A stretch of DNA of 35,102 bases from a virus. Lineage: Duplodnaviria; Heunggongvirae; Uroviricota; Caudoviricetes. Within the stretch, counting starts at the first letter, position 1. Each line of letters begins with the position of its first letter. The notes beneath the pieces were generated by a model that worked only from the letters and a program-made list of their open reading frames with translations, did not search any database and was not told where the DNA came from. Of the stretch, positions 2,236 through 33,754 are shown one piece after another. The DNA lies in IMG/VR virus record IMGVR_UViG_2541047701_000002. One strand, given 5' to 3'. The position numbers and the translations under genes were made by a program.

Positions 2236-5200
2236 TCAACTGATACTGATACCGGCTGTAGATTTCTTCATCACAACAACAAGAAGGTCGCTGATACTGG
2301 TCGTTGGCGTCCAGTTATTAGCACCATATGAAGAAACATTGAAAGTCAGGGTGACATGGCCGTGTCCGGCAGGCATATCAATGACTGATGAAAATACCCT
2401 GCTGACATCCGTCGCGGGTTGCTGAAAGATTTCCTGTCCGTTCTTCAGTACCTGCAGCTTACAGGTTGAATACCAGTATGACTGTTGGTTGTTGCTGTTG
2501 AAGTTTTCATGCTTACCCCCACGAAACAGAACGGGGGGGACTACTATCTGACGGTCAAAAGCCTGGTCATCGTACACAGTGACCGTTATTGTACCGCTGG
2601 CATAACTGCCATTTCTCGGAAAGGCTTTTCCCACCGTTTTGACAATATCACCTTCAATCTGGTTAGCTGACAGTTTTCCCAGAATCCGACAGTTCTGATT
2701 AATCGTGACGTTGTTGAGCGTCCCGGAGTTCGCGTTCACGTTACCGCTGATATCCGCATTTTTCGCAGAAAGTCGACCATCAGGTGTCAGTGAAAACGTT
2801 GGGGGATTGCCACCGCTGGTAATGGTGGGAGCCGTCAGATATTTCAGGAACACTTCGTTCATGAATATCTGATCGCCCTGCCCAACAAACATCGGCTTTG
2901 TGTTGCCATTCGCAGGATTAATCATCGCAATCCTGTCCGCCGCCAGCAGCACCTGACTCTGCATACCGTCAGGAGTATTCTCAACACCGGCACCAATACC
3001 CGCGATATAAAGGCGTCCGTCCTGCATCTGCTGCAGCTTCACAGCCCACATGCTGTTCAGGTTATTATTTGTATCAACCTGAACCTTCTGTATCTGCTGG
3101 ATCGCTGCACTCTGGTCTTCCAGTTTCTTATTGACGGTCTGCGTGATTTCATTGCTGACACCCGTAATGGACGTCCTGATTTCAGCCAGGTCAGGCGCAA
3201 GCTGACCGTTATCAATCTGCGTCCACAACTCCTGAGCCAGATGGGTTTTCCCTATCTCTCCTTTGAAAAAATTCAGATAGCCGGATGCATCATCACTCGG
3301 CTGGCCAACAGCCTCCACAAATGCCGATTTGCCAACGGTGTTCACACTGCGGATGTAAAAATAATAATCATGGCCCGGTTTGATATTGATACTGGCGGCT
3401 ATCCAGTACAGCGCCGTGCCAAGATAGCGTGCTGTGGTTTCAACCTGCCTGATATCCGCAATCCGCTTTTCCGAGAACCAGAACTCAAACTGTACCGTCG
3501 GATCATAAACCGCAAGATGCGGCGTGGCGGTTATCTGAAAATACCCCGGTGTCAGCTCAATCTGCGACGGCGCTGCCGGTGCGGCAATCCGGAACGATAC
3601 CGATGCCGGATCGCCCTGCTGCCCCCACGCATTTACCGCCCGGACTGTCAGCCTGTAGTTCCCCAGCGCCAGTTGCCTGAAGCGGTATGTGGTTTCCGTC
3701 GTCCGGGCCGTGCTGACCAGCCGCTCACTGCCGTCATCCGCTGCCACGGTCAGGCGAAGCATAAAGCTCACCCCCTTCACCACCTTCGGCGTGTCCCAGC
3801 GCGCCAGCACCTGATATTCCCCGCTGTCTGCGGTGACTTCGGCAGTCAGGTGCTGCACCGCTGGCGGCGTGACACCATTCACCGTGCCGCTCTGGTCGCC
3901 GTCAAAGTGCGCCCCGTTATCCACGATGGCCTCTTTTTCCGGTACATGCTGCACGGCAGTGATGGCATACGTGCCGTCATCGTTCTCACGGATACTCACA
4001 CAGCGGAACAGGCGCTGGCGCAACGTTGGCAACTTCAGCCCCCACACGCTGTATTCTGCAACGCCGTCAGGAACACGGCTCACTTTTACCTTCACGCCGT
4101 CGGTGACGGACTGGACCTCCACGCTGACCGGATTCCCCTGTCCGTCAGCCAGGCTTATCAGCGTGGTGCCGGAGGATGGCAGCGTGATTTCACGGTCGAG
4201 CGTCAGTGTCCGCGTCTGGTTGTTCACCGCCAGCACGCGCCCGCCGATGCTGATCCCCGCATAGTCATCATCACAGATTTCAATGACATCGCCCGGTACA
4301 TGGCGAAGCCCTTCTGCACCCACGCTGAAGTCCACGGTCTGCGTTTCCAGCAGCTCCGTTTTAATCAGCCACAGCCCGGCGCGGTGTGCCTGCCCCCGGC
4401 TGGTACAGCCAAAGGCATCCATCTTCGTGACGTTACGACCGTAACGGGCAATGGCCTGCGTGTCCTCCACAAGCTCTGTCGCCGTCTCCCAGCCGTTATC
4501 CGGGTCAATCCAGTTCACCTCAACGGCATTATGGCGGTCTTTCAGGGCGCTGAAGCTGTAGCGGAACGGCGCGCCATCATCCGGCATCACCACATTACTG
4601 CGGTTATAGGTCCACACCTTATCCGACGGTCGGTCCTGCACGAATGTCAGCGTCTGCCCGTTCCATACCGGCATACAGCGCATCGCCGAGCAAAAATCAC
4701 TGAGCACATCCCACGCCTTGCGCTGTGTGGTCAGGTACGCATTACAGGTGATGCGCGGCTCCGTGCCGCCAAAGCCGTCCGGCACTGACTGGTCGCAATT
4801 CTGGCCGATGACATACAGCGCCCATTTATCCACATCTGCCGCACCAAGACGTTTCCCCATGCCGTAGCGCGGATGGGTCAGCATATCCCACAGACACCAG
4901 GCCATGTTGTTGCTGTATGCTGGCTTAAACGTTCCGTCCCAGATACCGCTGTATTGCCGCGTCTGCGGGTTATAGTTCGACGGCACCTGCAGAATGCGCC
5001 CGCGAAGATGATAATTACGGCTCACCTGCTGGCTGCCGAACTGCTCCGAGTCCACCTGCACGCCGACCAGTGCCGTGTTCGGGTAGCACTGTTTCACATC
5101 GATGATTTCGGTGTATGACGACCAGAGCGTTTTGTTCTGCAGCTGGTCTGTGGTGCTGTCCGGCGTCATCCTGCGCATCCGTATATTGAACGGGCGCGGC

Positions 5201-18791: not shown

Positions 18792-20703
18792 TCACTCCTC
18801 CGGACAGCTTCGCTGCCAGTTCTTTAAGGGTTGGCCGGGTCGTCTCTTCTTCCCGGGATTTTGCCAGTACAGCCAGATCAAGCTGCCAGCGTTGCACGGA
18901 CACACGTAATGCCGCGTAGGCATACACCAGGCAGTCCAGCGCTTCGTTACGCCGCTTTTTGTTATCCCACAGCAGACGCATCTTTCCTTTTTCCCACTTC
19001 TCCACAAGCTCTTCCGCGACCAGTTGCTGCGCCTCTGTCTGCGAAAAAATCTCCGGATCATCAGGAAAACGGATAGCATACGACGTGGCTTCATCCACAG
19101 GCGTGGGATCGGCTTTCATACGGGCATAGAGAATTTCTTTTGCGGTGTCCGTCCCCACTTCACACAGATACACGCCCCGCTGATTGCGGGTTTTTGGCAT
19201 GGTGATCACCGGCTTGCCATAGACAGATGCGCCTTTTACCGGCAGCACCCGGAAAACACCGTGTTTTTTTGACCTCTGATAAACGATTTCGCCATCGATC
19301 CCCCCGATGTCCCAGCAGACACGGGAAATGGTCATTTCGGTTCCGTCTGCATGGCGGTATTTTTTGTTGATCGCCGCATCCACACGTAACAGCGTCTCTT
19401 CCTCATCGGGACGCCCCATAATGATGATTTTATCCACCAGAAAGGCTTCCTCTCCCGGAGCCCATCCCCAGACATACATCTCAAAACGGTTTCGCTGCGA
19501 GTCAATGCCCGCCGTCAGATAAACCACCCGGGCAGGCACCGCCGCCGTGTAACGCACAACCTTATCCATCAGCACCTGGTGATCGAGTTTTTCGCCCACA
19601 GCCTCTTCCCAGGTCTCGCCCAGCGTGGTGTTCACAAAGGTTTTCAGGCCGTTGGGATCTTTCAGTGCATCCAGCCAGTCATAGACAATCTGTACCCAGG
19701 TGGTGAACGGACTGTACGCCGTCCAGATATGGAAAGTGATGGAGCGCGGCGGCGGAATTTCATCACCCCGGGCGCTGAAAAACATCAGGCCGTCACGGGT
19801 CCACATGCCCGTGTTTTCACAGATCCACCGCCCGTTACTCTGGTCAAGCTCAGACTGATGGATCACACAGCCATGATGCTCACAAAGGTAGAAAACACTT
19901 TCTGGCTTATTCTTCTCCCACTTAAGACCGAAAGGCGAGGCATCATCGCCAAATTTCAGATACTGCTCCTCCCCACAGTGCGGACAGGGCACATAAAAAC
20001 GCATGAAGTGTGCCGACTCGTTAGCGGCTTTTTCGATCTGGCAGGAGCCTTTGATTTTAGGCGTCGAGCCGCGAATGGATTTTGGCCATACAGAGCCCTC
20101 AATACGTTTATCCCCCAGCAGGGTTGGCGAACCCTCTTTTTCAACATCCGGTTCGAACGAGGAAAGCTCGTCATAACAGACCACATCCACGGATTTTTCA
20201 CGGTAGTTTTTTGCTGCCGCACCACCCAGACACCAGAACCCCACACCGGAGGAAAAACGCTTCAGGGTGAGCGTATTATCGCGGTGTTTTCTTCCGAACC
20301 ATGGAGCCAGCTCCAGCAATGCAGGAACATCCCTTATCGTTGGCTCAACATGAGATTTCATAAAATCTTCAGCAGCTGAGTCCGTGGGCTGAAAAAGAAG
20401 GCTGTTGCGTGATTTATGCTCAATAAAATAAGCCTCCACTCCCAGCAACATCTTTGTATAACCAACACGGGCAGATTTAATCAGGTTAACCGTGCGAATC
20501 AGATCGTTGCCCATACAGTTCATGATGCCAACCTGAAACGGCAGTGTTTCCCATCGCCCCGGGGTATAAGACGACTCTTTAGGAAGGTAATAATGTTTAT
20601 TGGCCCACTGAACTGTCGTCAGTGGAACAGGAATAATGAGAGATAAAAGCCCTGTAGCTATCGCACCGGCTGCATTAGCTGCCTTCTGCGCGTCTGAAAT
20701 CAT
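18775..20703 (-). CDS. A: Terminase large subunit A
   Basis: Lambda gpA-like across its length ([20 protein letters not shown], ATPase and nuclease regions); start trimmed to MISDAQ, overlapping Nu1 by about 29 bp as in lambda. Confidence 0.95.
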
Positions 20704-21223
20704 CGATCCACCCGCCCACGTTTTCACCGGCCTTAGCTGCAACATTGGAGGCTTTCGCGATTTCAGTTTTCACCACATCAAGGTGTGATGGTGAAATGTC
20801 CGGATATTTACGCTGTAATGTCAACGGCACACGCACAAGTATCCCCGAAATCTCCTGTGCCACACGTTGCAGAATGAAGGTAAACAGTTCAGTTTCCAGC
20901 ACTACTCCGTCTTCACGGGCATTTTTCAGTTCCTGCGCATCTGCCTGCGCTTTTGTGAGCCGGTAGCGTTCATAGTCAATGGTGCCGGGTTGTAAATCTG
21001 ACTCCGCTGCCGCACGCAAATCGTCCAGTTCTTTGCGGAGCTTTTCGTTTTCGATATCAGTTTCCCTCTGCGCATACCACTGAATTGCCATGGCAGTATC
21101 AAATACAGATTCAATGCCCTTACTACCTTTGGAGGCGCAAGGGAGTCCCTGAGACTGCCAGCGTTCAATCGTCCGCGGGTCCACGTTGAAAATTTCGGCA
21201 AGCCTCTTTTTATTAACCTTCAT
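20675..21223 (-). CDS. Nu1: Terminase small subunit Nu1
   Basis: 182 aa; [28 protein letters not shown] winged-HTH N-terminus like lambda Nu1. Confidence 0.95.
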
Positions 21224-21412
21224 GAAAACAACCCATTATCAAATACAAGGCCCGACATGAAAACGCCAGAAAAAGGCATTTTCGGACACTTTCATGTCGG
21301 ACCTTTACGGATGCAATATTAAAAAAAAACAAAAAGTTATATTCGAGAAGTACCGACACGATTTTCCCTGAAAAATTTTCATAAATAGTGAAAAACCGCG
21401 AGGTCGCCGCCC
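21224..21412 (-). other. cos: cos site: cosB (Nu1/IHF binding region) plus cosN with lambda-identical 12-nt cohesive end
   Basis: Minus strand GGGCGGCGACCT at about 21401-21412, followed by CGCGGTTTTTCACTATTTATGAAAATTTT as in the lambda left end; 11-bp inverted repeat CCGACATGAAA / TTTCATGTCGG at about 21252-21300. Confidence 0.85.
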
Positions 21413-21560
21413 CGTAACCTGTTGGATCGACGGAAAGGACCCGAAAACGAGAATAATTATCACTTACAGCAAGAATCGAATCTGATCTATTATGGTGCTT
21501 GCTATTATGTGCCGGCACAAGTGCGTCGTTTACCGTCATTTCACACAGAGGCATCATCAA

Positions 21561-21812
21561 ATGAAAATCAGAAATATTCTCGCTATCTCCCTTGCGACAT
21601 CATCCTTCAGTTGCCTGGCATTTAAATCCTCGCCCAATGTGCTACCAGGACCAACGAATCAACTAACTGCGGTAGAAAGTAAAATTATCGGACATTTTTA
21701 TGCCCCACACAGTACATTACCCGGAACAACCATCACAGGGACATGTGACGCCTCCCCCGTCCCGGGATGCACCTGTCCGTTTTGTACTATGCTGCGTAGC
21801 CAAAACCGATAA
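21561..21812 (+). CDS. Hypothetical small secreted protein (signal peptide, Cys-rich C-terminus)
   Basis: AGAGG about 9 nt upstream of ATG; MKIRNILAISLATSSFSCLA signal-like N-terminus; C-terminal GTCDASPVPGCTCPFC; no homology recognised. Confidence 0.4.
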   Translation: MKIRNILAISLATSSFSCLAFKSSPNVLPGPTNQLTAVESKIIGHFYAPHSTLPGTTITGTCDASPVPGCTCPFCTMLRSQNR

Positions 21813-21873
21813 CATCCGCATTTACCTGGTATTCCATGATGAGTTCACGCAGCGACTGATAGAGGAAGGAAAG

Positions 21874-22053
21874 ATGGTTAGTAAAAGCAAGGCGCATTGC
21901 CGCCGCATGCTGCAGGCATTGCAACAGACGAGAGCAGGTATTTTTGACCAGTTGGAAAACTGCCAGCATACTTTGCCCGAGTATATCGCCATCTCATCGG
22001 AAACCAGTGCAACTCTTATTCATCGGGTTCCACCAGAGAAAAAGAAGAAATGA
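21874..22053 (+). CDS. Hypothetical small protein (59 aa)
   Basis: AGGAAGGA RBS 5 nt upstream of ATG; ends just before a bidirectional hairpin; no homology recognised. Confidence 0.3.
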   Translation: MVSKSKAHCRRMLQALQQTRAGIFDQLENCQHTLPEYIAISSETSATLIHRVPPEKKKK

Positions 22054-22059
22054 ACAGTG

Positions 22060-22090
22060 AGGCGTTGTGTGGCATACAACGCCTTCTTCC
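22060..22090. terminator. Hairpin between convergent genes (bidirectional terminator-like)
   Basis: AGGCGTTGT gtggcat ACAACGCCT (9-bp stem) with T-rich flank on the minus strand. Confidence 0.45.
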
Positions 22091-22175
22091 ATCATTCCTC
22101 GTCAGCCATGACAAAAATATAACCGCTGGCTCTTTCATTTTTCTCCTGCTTCCAGCCCCTCTCTACCTGGAAGCA

Positions 22176-22502
22176 TCAAGGACGTGACGGCGTAAAGATA
22201 AATTGTCTCTTCACTCCCTGACAGGGGCGATTCTTTTCAAATCGCCATTTCGCCATGGCCTTCACCACTTCATCACGAAACAAATTATGAGGCTCTGAGC
22301 GGAGAAAAACGATCCGTGTCACAGTCCCATCAGCACCAATATCGAACTTAACCTCAACCAGCCCCTTGATATAATTTGCTGCAGCATATTCCGGATATCG
22401 TGGATACACCGTCACTAATTGCCGGGGCTCATCAGCTTTTTGCTGCGAGCATCCCACTGCCAGGACAGATAACAGAAAAAGTAGTAAAAGGCGTCTTTTC
22501 AT
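22176..22502 (-). CDS. Putative envelope lipoprotein with TonB C-terminal-like domain (YbcV-like)
   Basis: Start trimmed to MKRRLLLLFLLSVLAVGC (lipobox-like LAVGC); C-terminal YPRYPEYAAANYIKGLVEVKFDIGADGTVTRIVFLRSEP...WRF resembles the TonB C-terminal fold. Confidence 0.6.
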   Translation of the reverse strand: MKRRLLLLFLLSVLAVGCSQQKADEPRQLVTVYPRYPEYAAANYIKGLVEVKFDIGADGTVTRIVFLRSEPHNLFRDEVVKAMAKWRFEKNRPCQGVKRQFIFTPSRP

Positions 22503-22982
22503 TTTTATTCCTACGGGTCTTATTCTGACAATATATCCTGTGTTCCAGACTGCCACATCACCACATCCTGTGCCATTATCTGACTCACATTACATACATC
22601 GCATCGGGATACAGTAGTAGCACTTTCTGTAATACAGCTTCCTGTTTCTTCCACCATCGCACCGGGATAAACCCGCGAATCATTAACGCGGTAAAAACCC
22701 GGTGTGCATCGTTTTTAATTATTCCCGCACACTCACGCAGAAGGAATTCCCCGTCGGGCTACGGTCATGGTTAATGCGGGAATACGGCGACGATACAGCG
22801 CAGCTAAAAGGGTAATGGACGGATAGACCGGTTTATTTCATTCCACAGGATTCTGAGTGTCCCCAACTTCCTCCAATAGTCTGAGCCCACCTGTGTAGTT
22901 TTAATTTTCATCAATCCATTTAACTATCGTTTAATTGTTGTCACATAGGATTCTGCCGTTTTTAACAATGCAGGATAATAAG

Positions 22983-23276
22983 ATGAAAAAAATGTTGTTT
23001 TCTGCCGCTCTGGCAATGCTTATTACAGGATGTGCTCAACAGACGTTTACTGTTGGAAACAAACCTACAGCAGTAACACCAAAGGAAACCATCACCCATC
23101 ATTTCTTCGTTTCGGGAATTGGGCAGAAGAAAACTGTCGATGCAGCAAAAATTTGTGGTGGTGCAGAAAATGTTGTTAAAACAGAAACCCAGCAAACATT
23201 CGTAAATGGATTGCTCGGTTTTATTACTTTAGGCATTTATACTCCGCTGGAAGCGCGTGTGTATTGCTCACAATAA
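22983..23276 (+). CDS. bor: Bor lipoprotein (serum-resistance lysogenic conversion protein)
   Basis: MKKMLFSAALAMLITGCAQQTFTV...EARVYCSQ, near-identical to lambda Bor; opposite strand to the lysis genes as in lambda. Confidence 0.93.
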   Translation: MKKMLFSAALAMLITGCAQQTFTVGNKPTAVTPKETITHHFFVSGIGQKKTVDAAKICGGAENVVKTETQQTFVNGLLGFITLGIYTPLEARVYCSQ

Positions 23277-23307
23277 TTGCATGAGTTGCCCATCGATATG
23301 GGCAGCT

Positions 23308-23769
23308 CTATCTGCACTGCTCATTAATATACTTCTGGGTTCCTTCCAGTTGTTTTTGCATAGTGATCAGCCTCTCTCTGAGGGTGAAATAATCCCGTTC
23401 AGCGGTGTCTGCCAGTCGGGGGGAGGCTGCATTATCCACGCCGGAGGCGGTGGTGGCTTCACGCACTGACTGACAGACTGCTTTGATGTGCAACCGACGA
23501 CGACCAGCGGCAACATCATCACGCAGAGCATCATTTTCAGCTTTCGCATCAGCTAACTCCTTCGTGTATTTTGCATCGAGCGCAGCAACATCACGCTGAC
23601 GCATCTGTATGTCAGTAATTACCGCGTTCGCCAGCGTCAGTTCTCTGGCATTTTTGTCGCGCTGGGCTTTGTAGGTAATGGCGTTATCACGGTAATGATT
23701 AACAGCCCATGACAGGCAGACGATGATGCAGATAACCAGAGCGGAGATAATCGCGGTTACTCTGTTCAT
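23308..23769 (-). CDS. Rz: Spanin inner-membrane subunit Rz
   Basis: [39 protein letters not shown] matches lambda Rz (153 aa); ATGA overlap with the R stop. Confidence 0.93.
23367..23549 (-). CDS. Rz1: Spanin outer-membrane lipoprotein Rz1 (embedded in Rz, +1 frame)
   Basis: 60 aa, [49 protein letters not shown] matches lambda Rz1. Confidence 0.9.
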
Positions 23770-24263
23770 TGCTGACCCCACAAACAGATTTCACGCTCAA
23801 TCTCACGACGAGTCATGAGACCTTTCCATTGCTTACCGCCAGCATATGTCCAGCGACGTAGCTGATCACATGCGCCTTTGATATCGCCCTGGTTTATTTT
23901 GCGAAGAAGCGTCGATGTTCTGAAATTGCCAGCACCCACGTTGTAAACGAATGAGTAAAGAGCGCCGCGCATTGTTTCCGGTATATCGACTTTGATGTAC
24001 GGGTTAATTTGTCTGGCGACCGTGGCAAGGTCTTTATTCAGGAGGGCTTTGCATTCTGCTTTGGTATACGTTTTACCGAGCATGATGTCTTTTCCTGTAT
24101 GCCCGTGACATACAGTCCATACACCAACAATATCTTTGTATGGTATGTAGCTGACACCTTCCAGACCATCGTTACCACTTGGGCCAGTGATTAACACTGA
24201 TGCTATAGCAATTGCTCCGCCACCAATAGCAGCAGCAACGGCTTTTCGTAATGATGGAGGCAT
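23766..24263 (-). CDS. R: SAR endolysin (phage 21 R-type lysozyme, signal-anchor-release)
   Basis: 165 aa; [30 protein letters not shown] hydrophobic SAR N-terminus plus lysozyme core; matches the phage 21 / DLP12 RrrD type, not the lambda R transglycosylase. Confidence 0.9.
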
Positions 24264-24478
24264 TATTCACCTCTCGCAGCCTTGCGCTTATCTTCTTTAA
24301 TCTTGAAATAAAGGTTTGTCAGGTACGTCAGCAGGCCAAATACCAGGCTACCCAGCACACCTATTGCCGCCCACTGTGAGGGCGTGACTTTATCGAGCAA
24401 CTGTAAAAACCAGTACCCGGCACTACCTGCTGAGGTACCATAGGCGACACCCGTTGTTAACTTATCCATGGATTTCAT
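24263..24478 (-). CDS. S: Pinholin S (phage 21 S21-type, dual-start)
   Basis: 71 aa, [31 protein letters not shown]; two TM segments; Met1 and Met4 dual-start motif typical of S21 / EssD. Confidence 0.9.
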
Positions 24479-24640: not shown

Positions 24641-25066
24641 AAGCTGTGTGACGAAGTAACCACTCTTAACAGCATAACCAATTTTTTACGTACGTAAACT
24701 ACTAAATGATATTTGTGAGAATGCCACCGAGTGTTCAAAACACCACCACAAATGCATAAGAAAACTTCAACAAATAACCAGTTAATAATTTCCGACGTTA
24801 TTTTTAGTTTGTTTAAATTAAGCTAAAGAATTATAGAGCACTTATAAATAAGTGCCATTAATATAAATTAGCTAATAGATTTATTTTTGTTCAGACAAGA
24901 GCCATGAATAGGATTAGATAGAAAAGGTTCAGATAAAAATAGAGATCTACTTCACAAATTAAATGAGAAACTAAAACTTACATCTTGAAATAATCACATT
25001 GATTAGATGAATATTTATCGCGCAGTGACATCATTTTTTAATAATAGTTCAAAAAAAGGGCGTACA

Positions 25067-26149
25067 ATGAAAAAATTAACAGTGGCAATTTCTGCTGTAG
25101 CTGCATCAGTACTGATGGCGATGTCTGCTCAGGCAGCTGAAATTTATAATAAAGACAGTAACAAGCTGGATCTATACGGGAAAGTTAATGCCAAGCACTA
25201 CTTCTCCTCTAATGATGCAGATGATGGTGATACTACTTATGCCCGTCTTGGCTTCAAAGGTGAAACCCAAATCAACGATCAACTGACTGGTTTCGGTCAG
25301 TGGGAATATGAATTCAAAGGCAACCGTGCTGAATCTCAAGGTTCTTCCAAAGACAAAACCCGTCTTGCATTTGCAGGCCTGAAATTTGGTGATTACGGCT
25401 CAATCGATTACGGCCGTAACTACGGTGTAGCATACGACATCGGTGCGTGGACTGACGTTCTGCCAGAATTCGGTGGTGATACCTGGACCCAAACAGATGT
25501 GTTCATGACTGGTCGCACTACTGGTGTTGCAACTTATCGTAACAACGACTTCTTTGGTCTGGTCGATGGCCTGAACTTTGCTGCTCAGTATCAGGGTAAA
25601 AATGACCGCACTGACGTAACTGAAGCCAATGGTGATGGTTTCGGTTTCTCCACTACTTATGAGTATGAAGGATTCGGCGTGGGTGCAACCTATGCTAAAT
25701 CAGATCGCACTGACGGTCAGGTCGCCTATGGTAAGAGCAAATTCAATGCCTCCGGCAAAAATGCGGAAGTATGGGCTGCAGGCCTGAAATATGATGCGAA
25801 CAATATCTATCTGGCTACCACATATTCTGAAACTCAGAATATGACCGTTTTTGGTAATAACCATATTGCAAACAAAGCACAAAACTTTGAAGCAGTAGCA
25901 CAATATCAGTTTGACTTCGGTCTGCGTCCATCTGTTGCTTACCTTCAGTCAAAAGGTAAAGACCTTGGTGTTCATGGTGACCGAGACTTAGTCAAGTATG
26001 TCGATGTCGGTGCTACTTACTACTTTAATAAAAACATGTCCACTTTTGTTGATTACAAAATCAACTTAATTGACGATAGTAAGTTTACCAAAACAGCTGG
26101 TATTGATACCGACGACATCGTCGCTGTAGGTCTGGTTTATCAGTTCTAA
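25067..26149 (+). CDS. nmpC: Outer membrane porin, phage Lc / NmpC family (OmpC-like; lysogenic conversion)
   Basis: Start trimmed to [23 protein letters not shown] signal peptide; [17 protein letters not shown]...GLVYQF with C-terminal Phe; typical general porin; opposite strand to the flanking Q and lysis genes. Confidence 0.92.
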
Positions 26150-33005: not shown

Positions 33006-33754
33006 TGTGCTCAACAGTGATCTCACAACTAGGTTTCGAATGCCATCCAATAGGCAAGACCTTGAGAATTATCAGTCCATTCACTTACTGTGATGATGGA
33101 GAGCATGTCGGTGCCTTTATCCGTGAAGTCAATGGTAGGTATTTAGTTAGTGACAGATGCGATGCCTTAATGAATATGGAGGCAAGAGGGATCTCGCTTA
33201 CCAAAAAACGACTTGATGAGATACGACAATTACTGCTTAAAGAAGGCGCAGAACTCAATGCTCGAGGAGAAATCATTGCTTGGGCAACAGAAAAGGATGT
33301 CGGTGCGATTACATCGAACATAATTAGAGCTGGTATACTCGCATCAACTTTGTCGTTAGACTGGTATCAGCCAGTTCAAGCTGAAAAGTTTGAAAGTATG
33401 GTTATTGATTATCTATATCACACAGAGCTTAGAGACGCACTTTCTCTTCGTGAAAACGTATATGGCTTGAGTGGACATCAAATTACCGTCCCTGTAACAA
33501 TAAAAACCGACATACCTAAATACGTTTTTACATCAAGCGTGAAACACGGAGGAAGCTGGAATAGTGCTTACTCATTGCTTGGGAAACTAATTGATCTTAA
33601 AGCTTCAAGTGAGGAGTATAACAACAGATTTGTTGTTATAGACAGCGAAGCAATTGGTGATCAAATGCAACAACTCTCCTTACTCTTCCATGAATCAAGC
33701 CAAGTTCTACCATTCTCCAAAAGAGAGACTTGGGTTAAGAGACTTGCAGCATAA
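33002..33754 (+). CDS. Hypothetical protein B of the two-gene cassette (translationally coupled to protein A)
   Basis: ATG overlaps the stop of protein A (ATGA); 250 aa; AT-rich codon usage; followed by a terminator; no family recognised by eye. Confidence 0.65.
   Translation: MMCSTVISQLGFECHPIGKTLRIISPFTYCDDGEHVGAFIREVNGRYLVSDRCDALMNMEARGISLTKKRLDEIRQLLLKEGAELNARGEIIAWATEKDVGAITSNIIRAGILASTLSLDWYQPVQAEKFESMVIDYLYHTELRDALSLRENVYGLSGHQITVPVTIKTDIPKYVFTSSVKHGGSWNSAYSLLGKLIDLKASSEEYNNRFVVIDSEAIGDQMQQLSLLFHESSQVLPFSKRETWVKRLAA

Follow-up and report, generated by a model that had tools for sequence, protein, structure and literature searches.

Results

Genes and features of the region

Our analysis concerns positions 21,224 to 23,276 of a 35,102-nucleotide (nt) stretch of viral DNA (Caudoviricetes; IMG/VR record IMGVR_UViG_2541047701_000002). 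We call the whole stretch the window, and positions are given in its numbering unless another sequence is named. The region runs from the gene for the terminase small subunit to the lysis genes of a phage 21-type lambdoid prophage, and constitutes the accessory-gene ('moron') cargo of that prophage, lying from lysis cassette to cos (Table 1). Purifying selection acts on its three small genes, all with envelope-targeted products: bor; a gene for a 108-amino-acid (aa) lipoprotein with a TonB C-terminal domain, which we call the TonB-C gene; and an 83-aa cysteine-rich gene. The second of these is our main subject, and we propose that its product may act as a decoy for TonB boxes. A preliminary description of this DNA had already viewed the cluster as cargo with neither virion nor lysis function, a view borne out by the gene order, and the open reading frames (ORFs) lie where it placed them, with small corrections to the coordinates.

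The sequence itself is common and already deposited, being the known accessory-gene region of the right end of phage 21. Escherichia phages PhiR57_1 and PhiR63_2 are 100% identical to the window over 21224-23276; over 21413-23276 so is phage 21 (OL657228), the classical lambdoid phage, at its right end. The prophage Perceval of strain LF82 shows 99.9% identity and keeps the gene order from bor to cos, and at least 80% of the core 21414-22960 is found in 1,222 of 5,426 complete E. coli genomes. Phage 21 has bor as CPT_21_71 and the lipoprotein gene as CPT_21_73, a 'TonB C-terminal domain protein', in the same order as in the window.

Table 1. Features of the region and of the adjoining genes. 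A slash in a peptide marks a predicted or possible processing point.
Feature	Position	Strand	Remarks
Nu1, terminase small subunit	20675-21223	-	
cosN, 12-nt cohesive end	21401-21412		AGGTCGCCGCCC (reverse complement of GGGCGGCGACCT); end of linear phage 21 record at window 21413
cosQ	21436-21442		AGGACCC; annotated in phage 21 at record positions 24-30
Fur-box-like AT-rich palindrome	21443-21461		15/19 match to Fur consensus; adjoins cosQ
83-aa Cys-rich secreted protein or possible lipoprotein	21561-21812	+	Signal peptide MKIRNILAISLATSSFSC/LA/F; tail GTCDASPVPGC[ST]CPFCTMLRS
60-aa ORF (phrog_3744)	21787-21969	-	Unsupported as a gene; antisense overlap with 59-aa ORF
59-aa ORF (phrog_4843)	21874-22053	+	Unsupported as a gene
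Hairpin between the convergent units	22060-22084		12-bp stem; -19.4 kcal/mol, z = -3.3
Second hairpin	22147-22175		9-bp stem; directly past TonB-C stop codon
108-aa predicted outer-membrane lipoprotein (TonB-C gene)	22176-22502	-	MKRRLLLLFLLSVLAVGC/SQQ (lipobox LAVGC/SQQ), then TonB C-terminal domain; Pfam TonB_C
Candidate -10 element	22575-22580	-	GATAAT; 73 nt upstream of TonB-C start codon
Conserved non-coding block	22650-22805		Inverted repeats at 22660-22704; upstream of TonB-C gene
bor / iss, outer-membrane lipoprotein	22983-23276	+	Lipobox LITGC/AQQ; Pfam Lambda_Bor PF06291
Rz	23308-23781	-	
Rz1	23367-23549	-	
Endolysin	23766-24263	-	
Holin	24263-24478	-	

A lipoprotein family with a lone TonB C-terminal domain

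The preliminary description had noticed that the C-terminus of the lipoprotein resembles that of TonB, and hidden Markov models confirm the resemblance: the protein scores 49.2 bits against Pfam PF03544 (TonB_C; cutoff 24.6, expectation value E 7.3e-13) and 47.4 bits against TIGR01352 (cutoff 27.1). Its best sequence match in the PDB is E. coli TonB 1u07 (E 1.4e-14), and residues 24-103 align with E. coli TonB 151-230 at 40% identity, gap-free over 80 residues. In the 1u07 alignment TonB residues Y163, P164, F180, G186, F202, W213 and F230 are identical in the lipoprotein and Y215 is replaced by Phe. With these signature residues kept, binding of TonB boxes by the lipoprotein is a prediction from its sequence. 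Structure prediction, which the preliminary description had named as a check, recovers the TonB_C fold. A shallow AlphaFold model of low mean confidence (predicted local distance difference test, pLDDT, 61) has helices at 25-30 and 36-42, followed by a pair of strands, a long helix and one last strand; this predicted order fits the TonB C-terminal domain. When this low-confidence model was compared with the PDB by Foldseek, the top 13 matches were all C-terminal domains of TonB, FusB or TonB2 (probability 0.91-1.00, target-normalised TM-score 0.40-0.60).

The C-terminal domain (150-239 in E. coli TonB; 1U07, 2GRX, 2GSK) is what the lipoprotein and TonB have in common. The lipoprotein does not have TonB's N-terminal transmembrane anchor and proline-rich spacer, however, and carries a lipoprotein signal peptide instead. 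Its LAVGC followed by Ser fits a PROSITE PS51257-type pattern, Cys18 is invariant in 13 of 13 members of the lipoprotein family, and lipidation is predicted; the domain follows about 6 residues after Cys18, on a short tether of about 12 residues. Against the NCBIfam equivalog models for full-length TonB (NF008080-NF008084) the protein reaches 45-69 bits, far from their cutoffs of 265-448. An exhaustive profile search returned many proteins of about 110 aa with the same plan of a lipobox followed by TonB_C, at 1e-28 to 1e-14 and thus equal to or above genuine TonBs. (The scan of the genome collection was made with a closer alignment, the 13-sequence alignment being too diverse.) Relatives of this kind lie in ordinary chromosomal, non-phage contexts in Klebsiella, Raoultella, Serratia and Erwinia, the one in Serratia upstream of dsbB as judged from ORF N-termini. 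Closer to the window, both the lipobox and the length of 108 aa are retained in subtypes whose proteins are 85%, 70% and 67% identical, and the ratio of non-synonymous to synonymous substitution rates (dN/dS) against them, 0.10-0.19, points to purifying selection on the gene. We regard the 108-aa protein, on these comparisons, as a member of a lipoprotein family of its own, of about 110 aa and with a lone TonB C-terminal domain, and not as a broken tonB.

Could the gene nevertheless be an inert remnant of a host tonB that was once captured? Such a reading is suggested by 'TonB fragment' and 'partial tonB-like', labels in the annotation of ev017, Perceval and CP-933N, and the gene indeed spans TonB residues 150-230 only. 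However, it has a signal peptide and a lipobox of its own, its length is constant in subtypes of 67-85% identity, its dN/dS is that of a gene under constraint, its nearest relatives are small lipoproteins and not TonB, and it is transcribed in LF82. This idea is largely refuted already, and we consider it highly improbable. A further label comes from PHROGs, where the TonB_C lipoprotein family, phrog_1267, is called 'Rz-like spanin'. We rejected a spanin identity, as the window has its own Rz and Rz1 and the protein is a TonB_C domain, while spanins, which act in the final stage of lysis, normally number a single pair in each phage; the name looks like annotation transferred by position. All three labels are misleading.

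Transcription and upstream DNA of the TonB-C gene

The lipoprotein of Perceval is 100% identical to that of the window, and RNA-seq of LF82 has been published. In these lysogens the 'TonB fragment' LF82_160 stands 8-fold over the prophage background in LB (PMC9928086, Table 1). According to the supplementary tables of the same study, the gene lies roughly 5- to 15-fold over the flanking Rz and Nu1 in most of five conditions, Rz and Nu1 themselves being near background, and its level is roughly constant in LB, in cell-culture medium and in macrophages (PMC9928086). This shows that the TonB-C gene is transcribed in lysogens at a modest level, with reads that are possibly antisense.

Upstream of the gene, the candidate -10 element GATAAT is a promoter-like match that is invariant over four gene subtypes, with variable flanks. 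The non-coding block farther upstream is far better conserved over the four subtypes than are the coding sequences (67-78% identical), and it is present in 432 phage records, that of lambda included, and in many lambdoid prophages. The copy of the block in HK629 has a predicted sigma-70 promoter upstream of bor, which is degraded in the window. An Rfam scan of 21200-23400 gave chance-level hits only, with no match for the block. We also observed the block in thousands of E. coli genomes, at up to 5 places per genome and with or without bor or a TonB gene; RNAalifold folds its late-transcript strand into two stems that include several G-U pairs, with almost no covariation.

The cysteine-rich gene

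The 83-aa ORF is, on comparative evidence, a genuine conserved gene. Searching with the protein turned up 22 homologues, 54-98% identical, from E. coli, Salmonella, Klebsiella and Citrobacter; most have a length of 82-84 aa. A diverged copy of the cluster, locus L019, whose TonB-C protein is 85% identical to that of the window, keeps the 83-aa ORF with its start and stop at about 67% nucleotide identity and with many third-position changes. Salmonella and Klebsiella loci likewise keep it at about 67% nucleotide identity, and in these the DNA similarity is confined to the ORF, from 8 nt before the ATG to the stop codon or just past it. The dN/dS is 0.08-0.17. The preliminary description had called the ORF a putative secreted peptide and had tied its reality to conservation; the signal peptide and the conserved homologues in four genera vindicate it, and on this gene it did better than the annotation of the five records that we inspected (phage 21, PhiR57_1, Perceval and two PGAP records), from all of which the gene is missing.

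Cys18 is invariant, in SSFSC. It fits the permissive PROSITE pattern PS51257 in 19 of 19 homologues but not the strict L-[AS]-[GA]-C, and CLA followed by F is a plausible signal peptidase I site. The protein may thus be processed by signal peptidase I, with the cut after CLA, or else be the third lipoprotein of the cluster. We found no relative of it in Pfam (15 members scanned), PHROGs, PADLOC or, by profile search, the PDB; its structure model (pLDDT 47.5) was unusable and no fold search was made.

The contexts of the gene are varied. It adjoins cos and Nu1 in prophages that have neither bor nor the TonB gene (L030-L033). In a Salmonella island it lies just upstream of a bor homologue; the island also has genes for an omptin and a SPATE-type autotransporter and, in some of the loci, for an NEL-domain effector. 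In Citrobacter koseri it is next to icd, which we take to serve phage 21 as attachment site, and a Citrobacter sp. has it divergent from a fecIRA-like operon. It is also present in 65 Klebsiella plasmid records, 62 of the 72 plasmids with a match being typed as conjugative. Since the gene is retained in apparent prophage remnants, its distribution argues for a benefit to the host.

Given these neighbours, is the gene regulated by iron? Together with a site at 33401, the Fur-box-like palindrome about 100 nt upstream of it gives the window's two best matches to a Fur box, and at the equivalent cos position the match to the consensus is 16/19 in L019 and 15/19 in L030. Upstream of homologues outside cos contexts the box is not kept (best 10-13/19). 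We rejected Fur regulation of the cysteine-rich gene because the box is kept at cos sites and absent upstream of non-cos homologues, and we treat the box, judging from these matches, as a cos-linked feature or a chance match. Presumably lambda has a similar Fur-like box at its cos, and to our knowledge it has no homologue of the cysteine-rich ORF there. Separately, a 16/19 Fur-box match lies at 4096-4114 of the Salmonella locus L043, between the homologues of the cysteine-rich gene and of bor and about 100 nt upstream of bor, and a match of at least 14/19 occupies the same relative place in the Salmonella locus L025 (5334-5358).

Bor

The identification of bor in the preliminary description was correct. 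The protein scores 106 bits against PF06291 (Lambda_Bor; cutoff 25, E 1.1e-30) and shares 93% identity with HK629's lambda-type Bor. The gene is positioned after Rz and on the opposite strand to it; lipobox, position and orientation are all as in lambda Bor and plasmid Iss, with no notable difference, and we assign it to the Bor/Iss family. In LF82, transcripts of Perceval bor (LF82_0244) stand at log2 values of about 4 in LB, about 8 in cell-culture medium and about 11 in macrophages, next to the roughly constant TonB-C gene (PMC9928086, supplementary tables).

Two overlapping small ORFs

Between the cysteine-rich gene and the hairpins lie two mutually antisense ORFs of 59 and 60 aa, for which PHROGs has separate families on the same DNA and of which PGAP calls one strand or the other depending on the genome. 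They fall largely within a 372-bp segment (21803-22174) that is near-invariant across E. coli and absent from L019. The preliminary description had counted the 59-aa ORF as a gene. For concreteness, suppose that it were a real small protein, co-transcribed with the cysteine-rich gene and ended by the hairpin: it has a strong Shine-Dalgarno sequence, GAGGAAGGAAAG, before its ATG, the hairpin lies 7 nt past its stop, and it has a PHROG family, phrog_4843, and a PGAP call in some genomes. However, in a common variant, listed in 483 contig-collection blocks, one nucleotide inserted after 21888 breaks both frames: it detaches the Shine-Dalgarno sequence and the ATG from what remains of the plus-strand ORF, and it truncates the minus-strand ORF too. 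In the remaining 48 codons of this variant, 3 of the 3 other substitutions are non-synonymous. Moreover, the 59-aa ORF has 4 near-identical database matches only, with no trustworthy homologue below 90% identity (the one match at 62% is to a contig riddled with indels); L019 lacks the segment; and P0181-type prophages (L030-L032) have an unrelated DUF3950 gene in its place. We therefore regard a real 59-aa protein as quite unlikely. By these comparisons neither overlapping ORF is supported, and the 59-aa ORF is probably not a gene.

Two candidate relatives were tried and set aside. A YlcI/YnfO (DUF3950) identity for the 59-aa ORF was rejected, there being no BLASTP alignment to JLK-2012 gp69 and no Pfam match. 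The Logan contig L029, 88% identical over the whole cluster, was considered as a diverged orthologue; its indels, about 100 and scattered, and its transition/transversion ratio near 1.4 point to a noisy assembly, and we discarded it. The curated record of phage 21 has no entry for the conserved 83-aa gene on the opposite strand, while it calls three late-strand small ORFs of 60, 40 and 45 aa that comparison does not support: the 40-aa minus-strand ORF lies inside the segment missing from L019, and the 45-aa minus-strand ORF in a stretch full of indels between subtypes.

Hairpins, cos and the neighbouring porin gene

Of the bidirectional hairpin that the preliminary description placed between the convergent genes, the hairpin is real, with a 12-bp stem, and a second one lies beside it. 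The implied two-way terminator is only putative, as neither stem is directly followed by a clean U-run and a terminator scan called neither hairpin. Lambdoid late transcription is Q-antiterminated, and late transcripts would therefore read through both hairpins anyway.

The positions of cosN and cosQ are fixed by the end of the phage 21 record. In the cosB region, between the Nu1 start codon and cosN, we noted a 27-nt inverted repeat with 81% complementarity and a 5-nt spacer (21247-21305). Prophages that are otherwise 97% identical (L035-L038) have 1-3 differences inside the 12-nt cohesive end, at 21407 in all of them and additionally at 21401 and 21403 in L035. Upstream of the holin gene the window has a 380-aa porin gene (25007-26149, plus strand), which identical prophages have annotated as OmpD, OmpC or NmpC. 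Its place in phage 21 is taken by two tRNA genes, and ARAGORN detects no tRNA in the window. In the LF82 study this porin stands 10-fold over the prophage background (PMC9928086).

Discussion

What could a TonB C-terminal domain do when it is detached from TonB and, as predicted here, anchored in the opposite membrane? We propose, with a probability of roughly 0.4, that the TonB-C lipoprotein competes for TonB boxes and, as a decoy, protects the lysogen from TonB-dependent phages, colicins and microcins. The protein would carry a lipid on Cys18 and, owing to the Ser at +2, would be sent to the outer membrane, on whose inner face it would sit. Asp at this position is a retention signal, and Ser predicts Lol-dependent sorting to the outer membrane. 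Produced in modest amounts in lysogens, it would present a tethered TonB C-terminal domain at the periplasmic face, where TonB boxes emerge, and would bind TonB-box strands through beta-augmentation, as the TonB C-terminal domain does. It would transmit no force, because it lacks the proline-rich spacer and an ExbBD-coupled anchor. It would thus compete with the limiting real TonB at TonB-dependent transporters, or capture the TonB boxes of incoming colicins, and the outcome would be a lower sensitivity to TonB-dependent phages (T1, phi80), to group B colicins and to some microcins.

Several elements of this scheme have precedents. TonB's C-terminal domain binds TonB boxes via strand addition to its beta-3 strand (PMC11658791). 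Transporters compete for TonB, and an over-produced periplasmic TonB domain inhibits TonB-dependent iron import (Howard 2001, as cited in PMC9841981). As far as that citing account goes, the engineered fragments inhibit while uncoupled from ExbBD, and the lipoprotein is likewise without coupling; the fragments, however, are soluble and over-produced, whereas the phage lipoprotein is natural, predicted to be lipid-anchored and moderately expressed. Llp of T5, and probably Cor, are phage lipoproteins that jam the TonB-dependent transporter FhuA from the periplasmic side (PMC9586334). They too are small outer-membrane lipoproteins that act on a TonB-dependent transporter periplasmically, and the mechanism that we propose is of a like kind.

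There are differences from Llp and Cor as well. These proteins block the receptor of their own phage, FhuA, and act on one transporter, whereas a binder of TonB boxes would affect every TonB-dependent transporter. Over its C-terminal 250 aa, J of the window shows 100% identity to J of phage 21, whose native receptor is LamB. We could thus reject a blocking of the phage's own receptor, and since the phage uses LamB, any exclusion would hit other phages, colicins and microcins. Neither small protein has a PHROG or Pfam match to Cor/Llp-type families, and we do not place them there: the genes adjoin cos and not J, and they have no sequence similarity to Cor or Llp. In our literature searches we found no functional study of a prophage TonB_C lipoprotein.

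The decoy proposal survives our checks because of the fold, the signature residues, the Ser at +2, the purifying selection, the RNA-seq of lysogens and the precedent for inhibition of iron import. We consider it the most economical reading and a plausible one, although the steps beyond a transcribed TonB_C lipoprotein are ones that we infer. A number of observations weigh against it, some general and others favoring one of two alternatives. Among the general ones, blocking TonB should cost the lysogen uptake of iron and vitamin B12, and PADLOC, which covers known anti-phage defence, gave 0 matches for all four proteins at E up to 0.1.

The remaining objections concern, on the one hand, how the gene is expressed. 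In four phage lineages (phage 21 types, Stx1a/JLK-2012 types, the L020 locus and a Klebsiella phage) it directly follows the lysis genes, holin, endolysin and spanin, on the late strand and before the packaging genes. The protein will therefore be made late in the lytic cycle, and the place would suit a lytic-cycle role too. Promoter scans found no consensus sigma-70 promoter upstream of the gene, and the LF82 RNA-seq comes without stated strandedness, so that reads over the gene could be antisense. The lipoprotein could accordingly be a late lytic-cycle protein made from the Q-antiterminated late transcript, whether for 'lytic conversion' in the manner of T5 Llp or as an accessory to envelope disruption, and the label of phrog_1267 as a spanin would agree. 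In LF82 lysogens, however, the TonB-C gene is in most conditions expressed at some 5- to 15-fold the level of Rz and Nu1, which are near background, and the window already has a complete Rz/Rz1 pair. Moreover, o-spanins are short proline-rich proteins, which the globular TonB_C fold does not resemble. We think a purely late lytic function unlikely, while noting that late and lysogenic expression are compatible with each other.

The other objections concern what the domain binds. The equivalents of TonB Q160 and R166, which we take to be transporter-contacting residues, are both Tyr in the lipoprotein, and its beta-3 strand is far more basic than that of TonB (KRQFIF vs VVNILF). None of the chromosomal relatives in Klebsiella, Raoultella, Serratia and Erwinia adjoins iron-uptake genes. 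These points, together with the neighbouring bor in the cargo cluster and an expression that is roughly constant in LB, cell-culture medium and macrophages, would agree with a protein that binds some partner other than TonB boxes (peptidoglycan, an outer-membrane protein or a host factor) and contributes, like Bor, to envelope robustness or to survival in serum or macrophages. Yet TonB-box binding is the sole documented function of the TonB_C fold in Enterobacteria, and the signature aromatic residues are retained. We hold such a different partner to be a tentative possibility, and a rather doubtful one.

Taken at its broadest, the decoy proposal would make an outer-membrane TonB C-terminal domain a general decoy for TonB boxes, protecting lysogens broadly from TonB-dependent phages, group B colicins and microcins by an exclusion at the level of the pathway that is distinct from Llp and Cor. 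The cysteine-rich, lipoprotein-like gene, with Fur-like boxes next to it at three cos sites and the fecIRA-like operon beside it in a Citrobacter sp., might then be a second envelope factor, perhaps under iron control. In this full form we offer it as a conjecture about which we are ourselves rather doubtful.

Roughly one in five complete E. coli genomes has the cluster; ST131 strains are among the carriers, as is LF82, a strain associated with Crohn's disease. The conserved cysteine-rich envelope gene, unlisted in the records that we inspected, is shared by prophages, Klebsiella conjugative plasmids and a Salmonella island. If the decoy proposal is true, carriers would have an altered sensitivity to T1-like phages, colicins, microcins and siderophore-antibiotic conjugates, traded off against iron acquisition. 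To the phage lipoproteins that jam single transporters it would add a mechanism acting at the level of the whole pathway.

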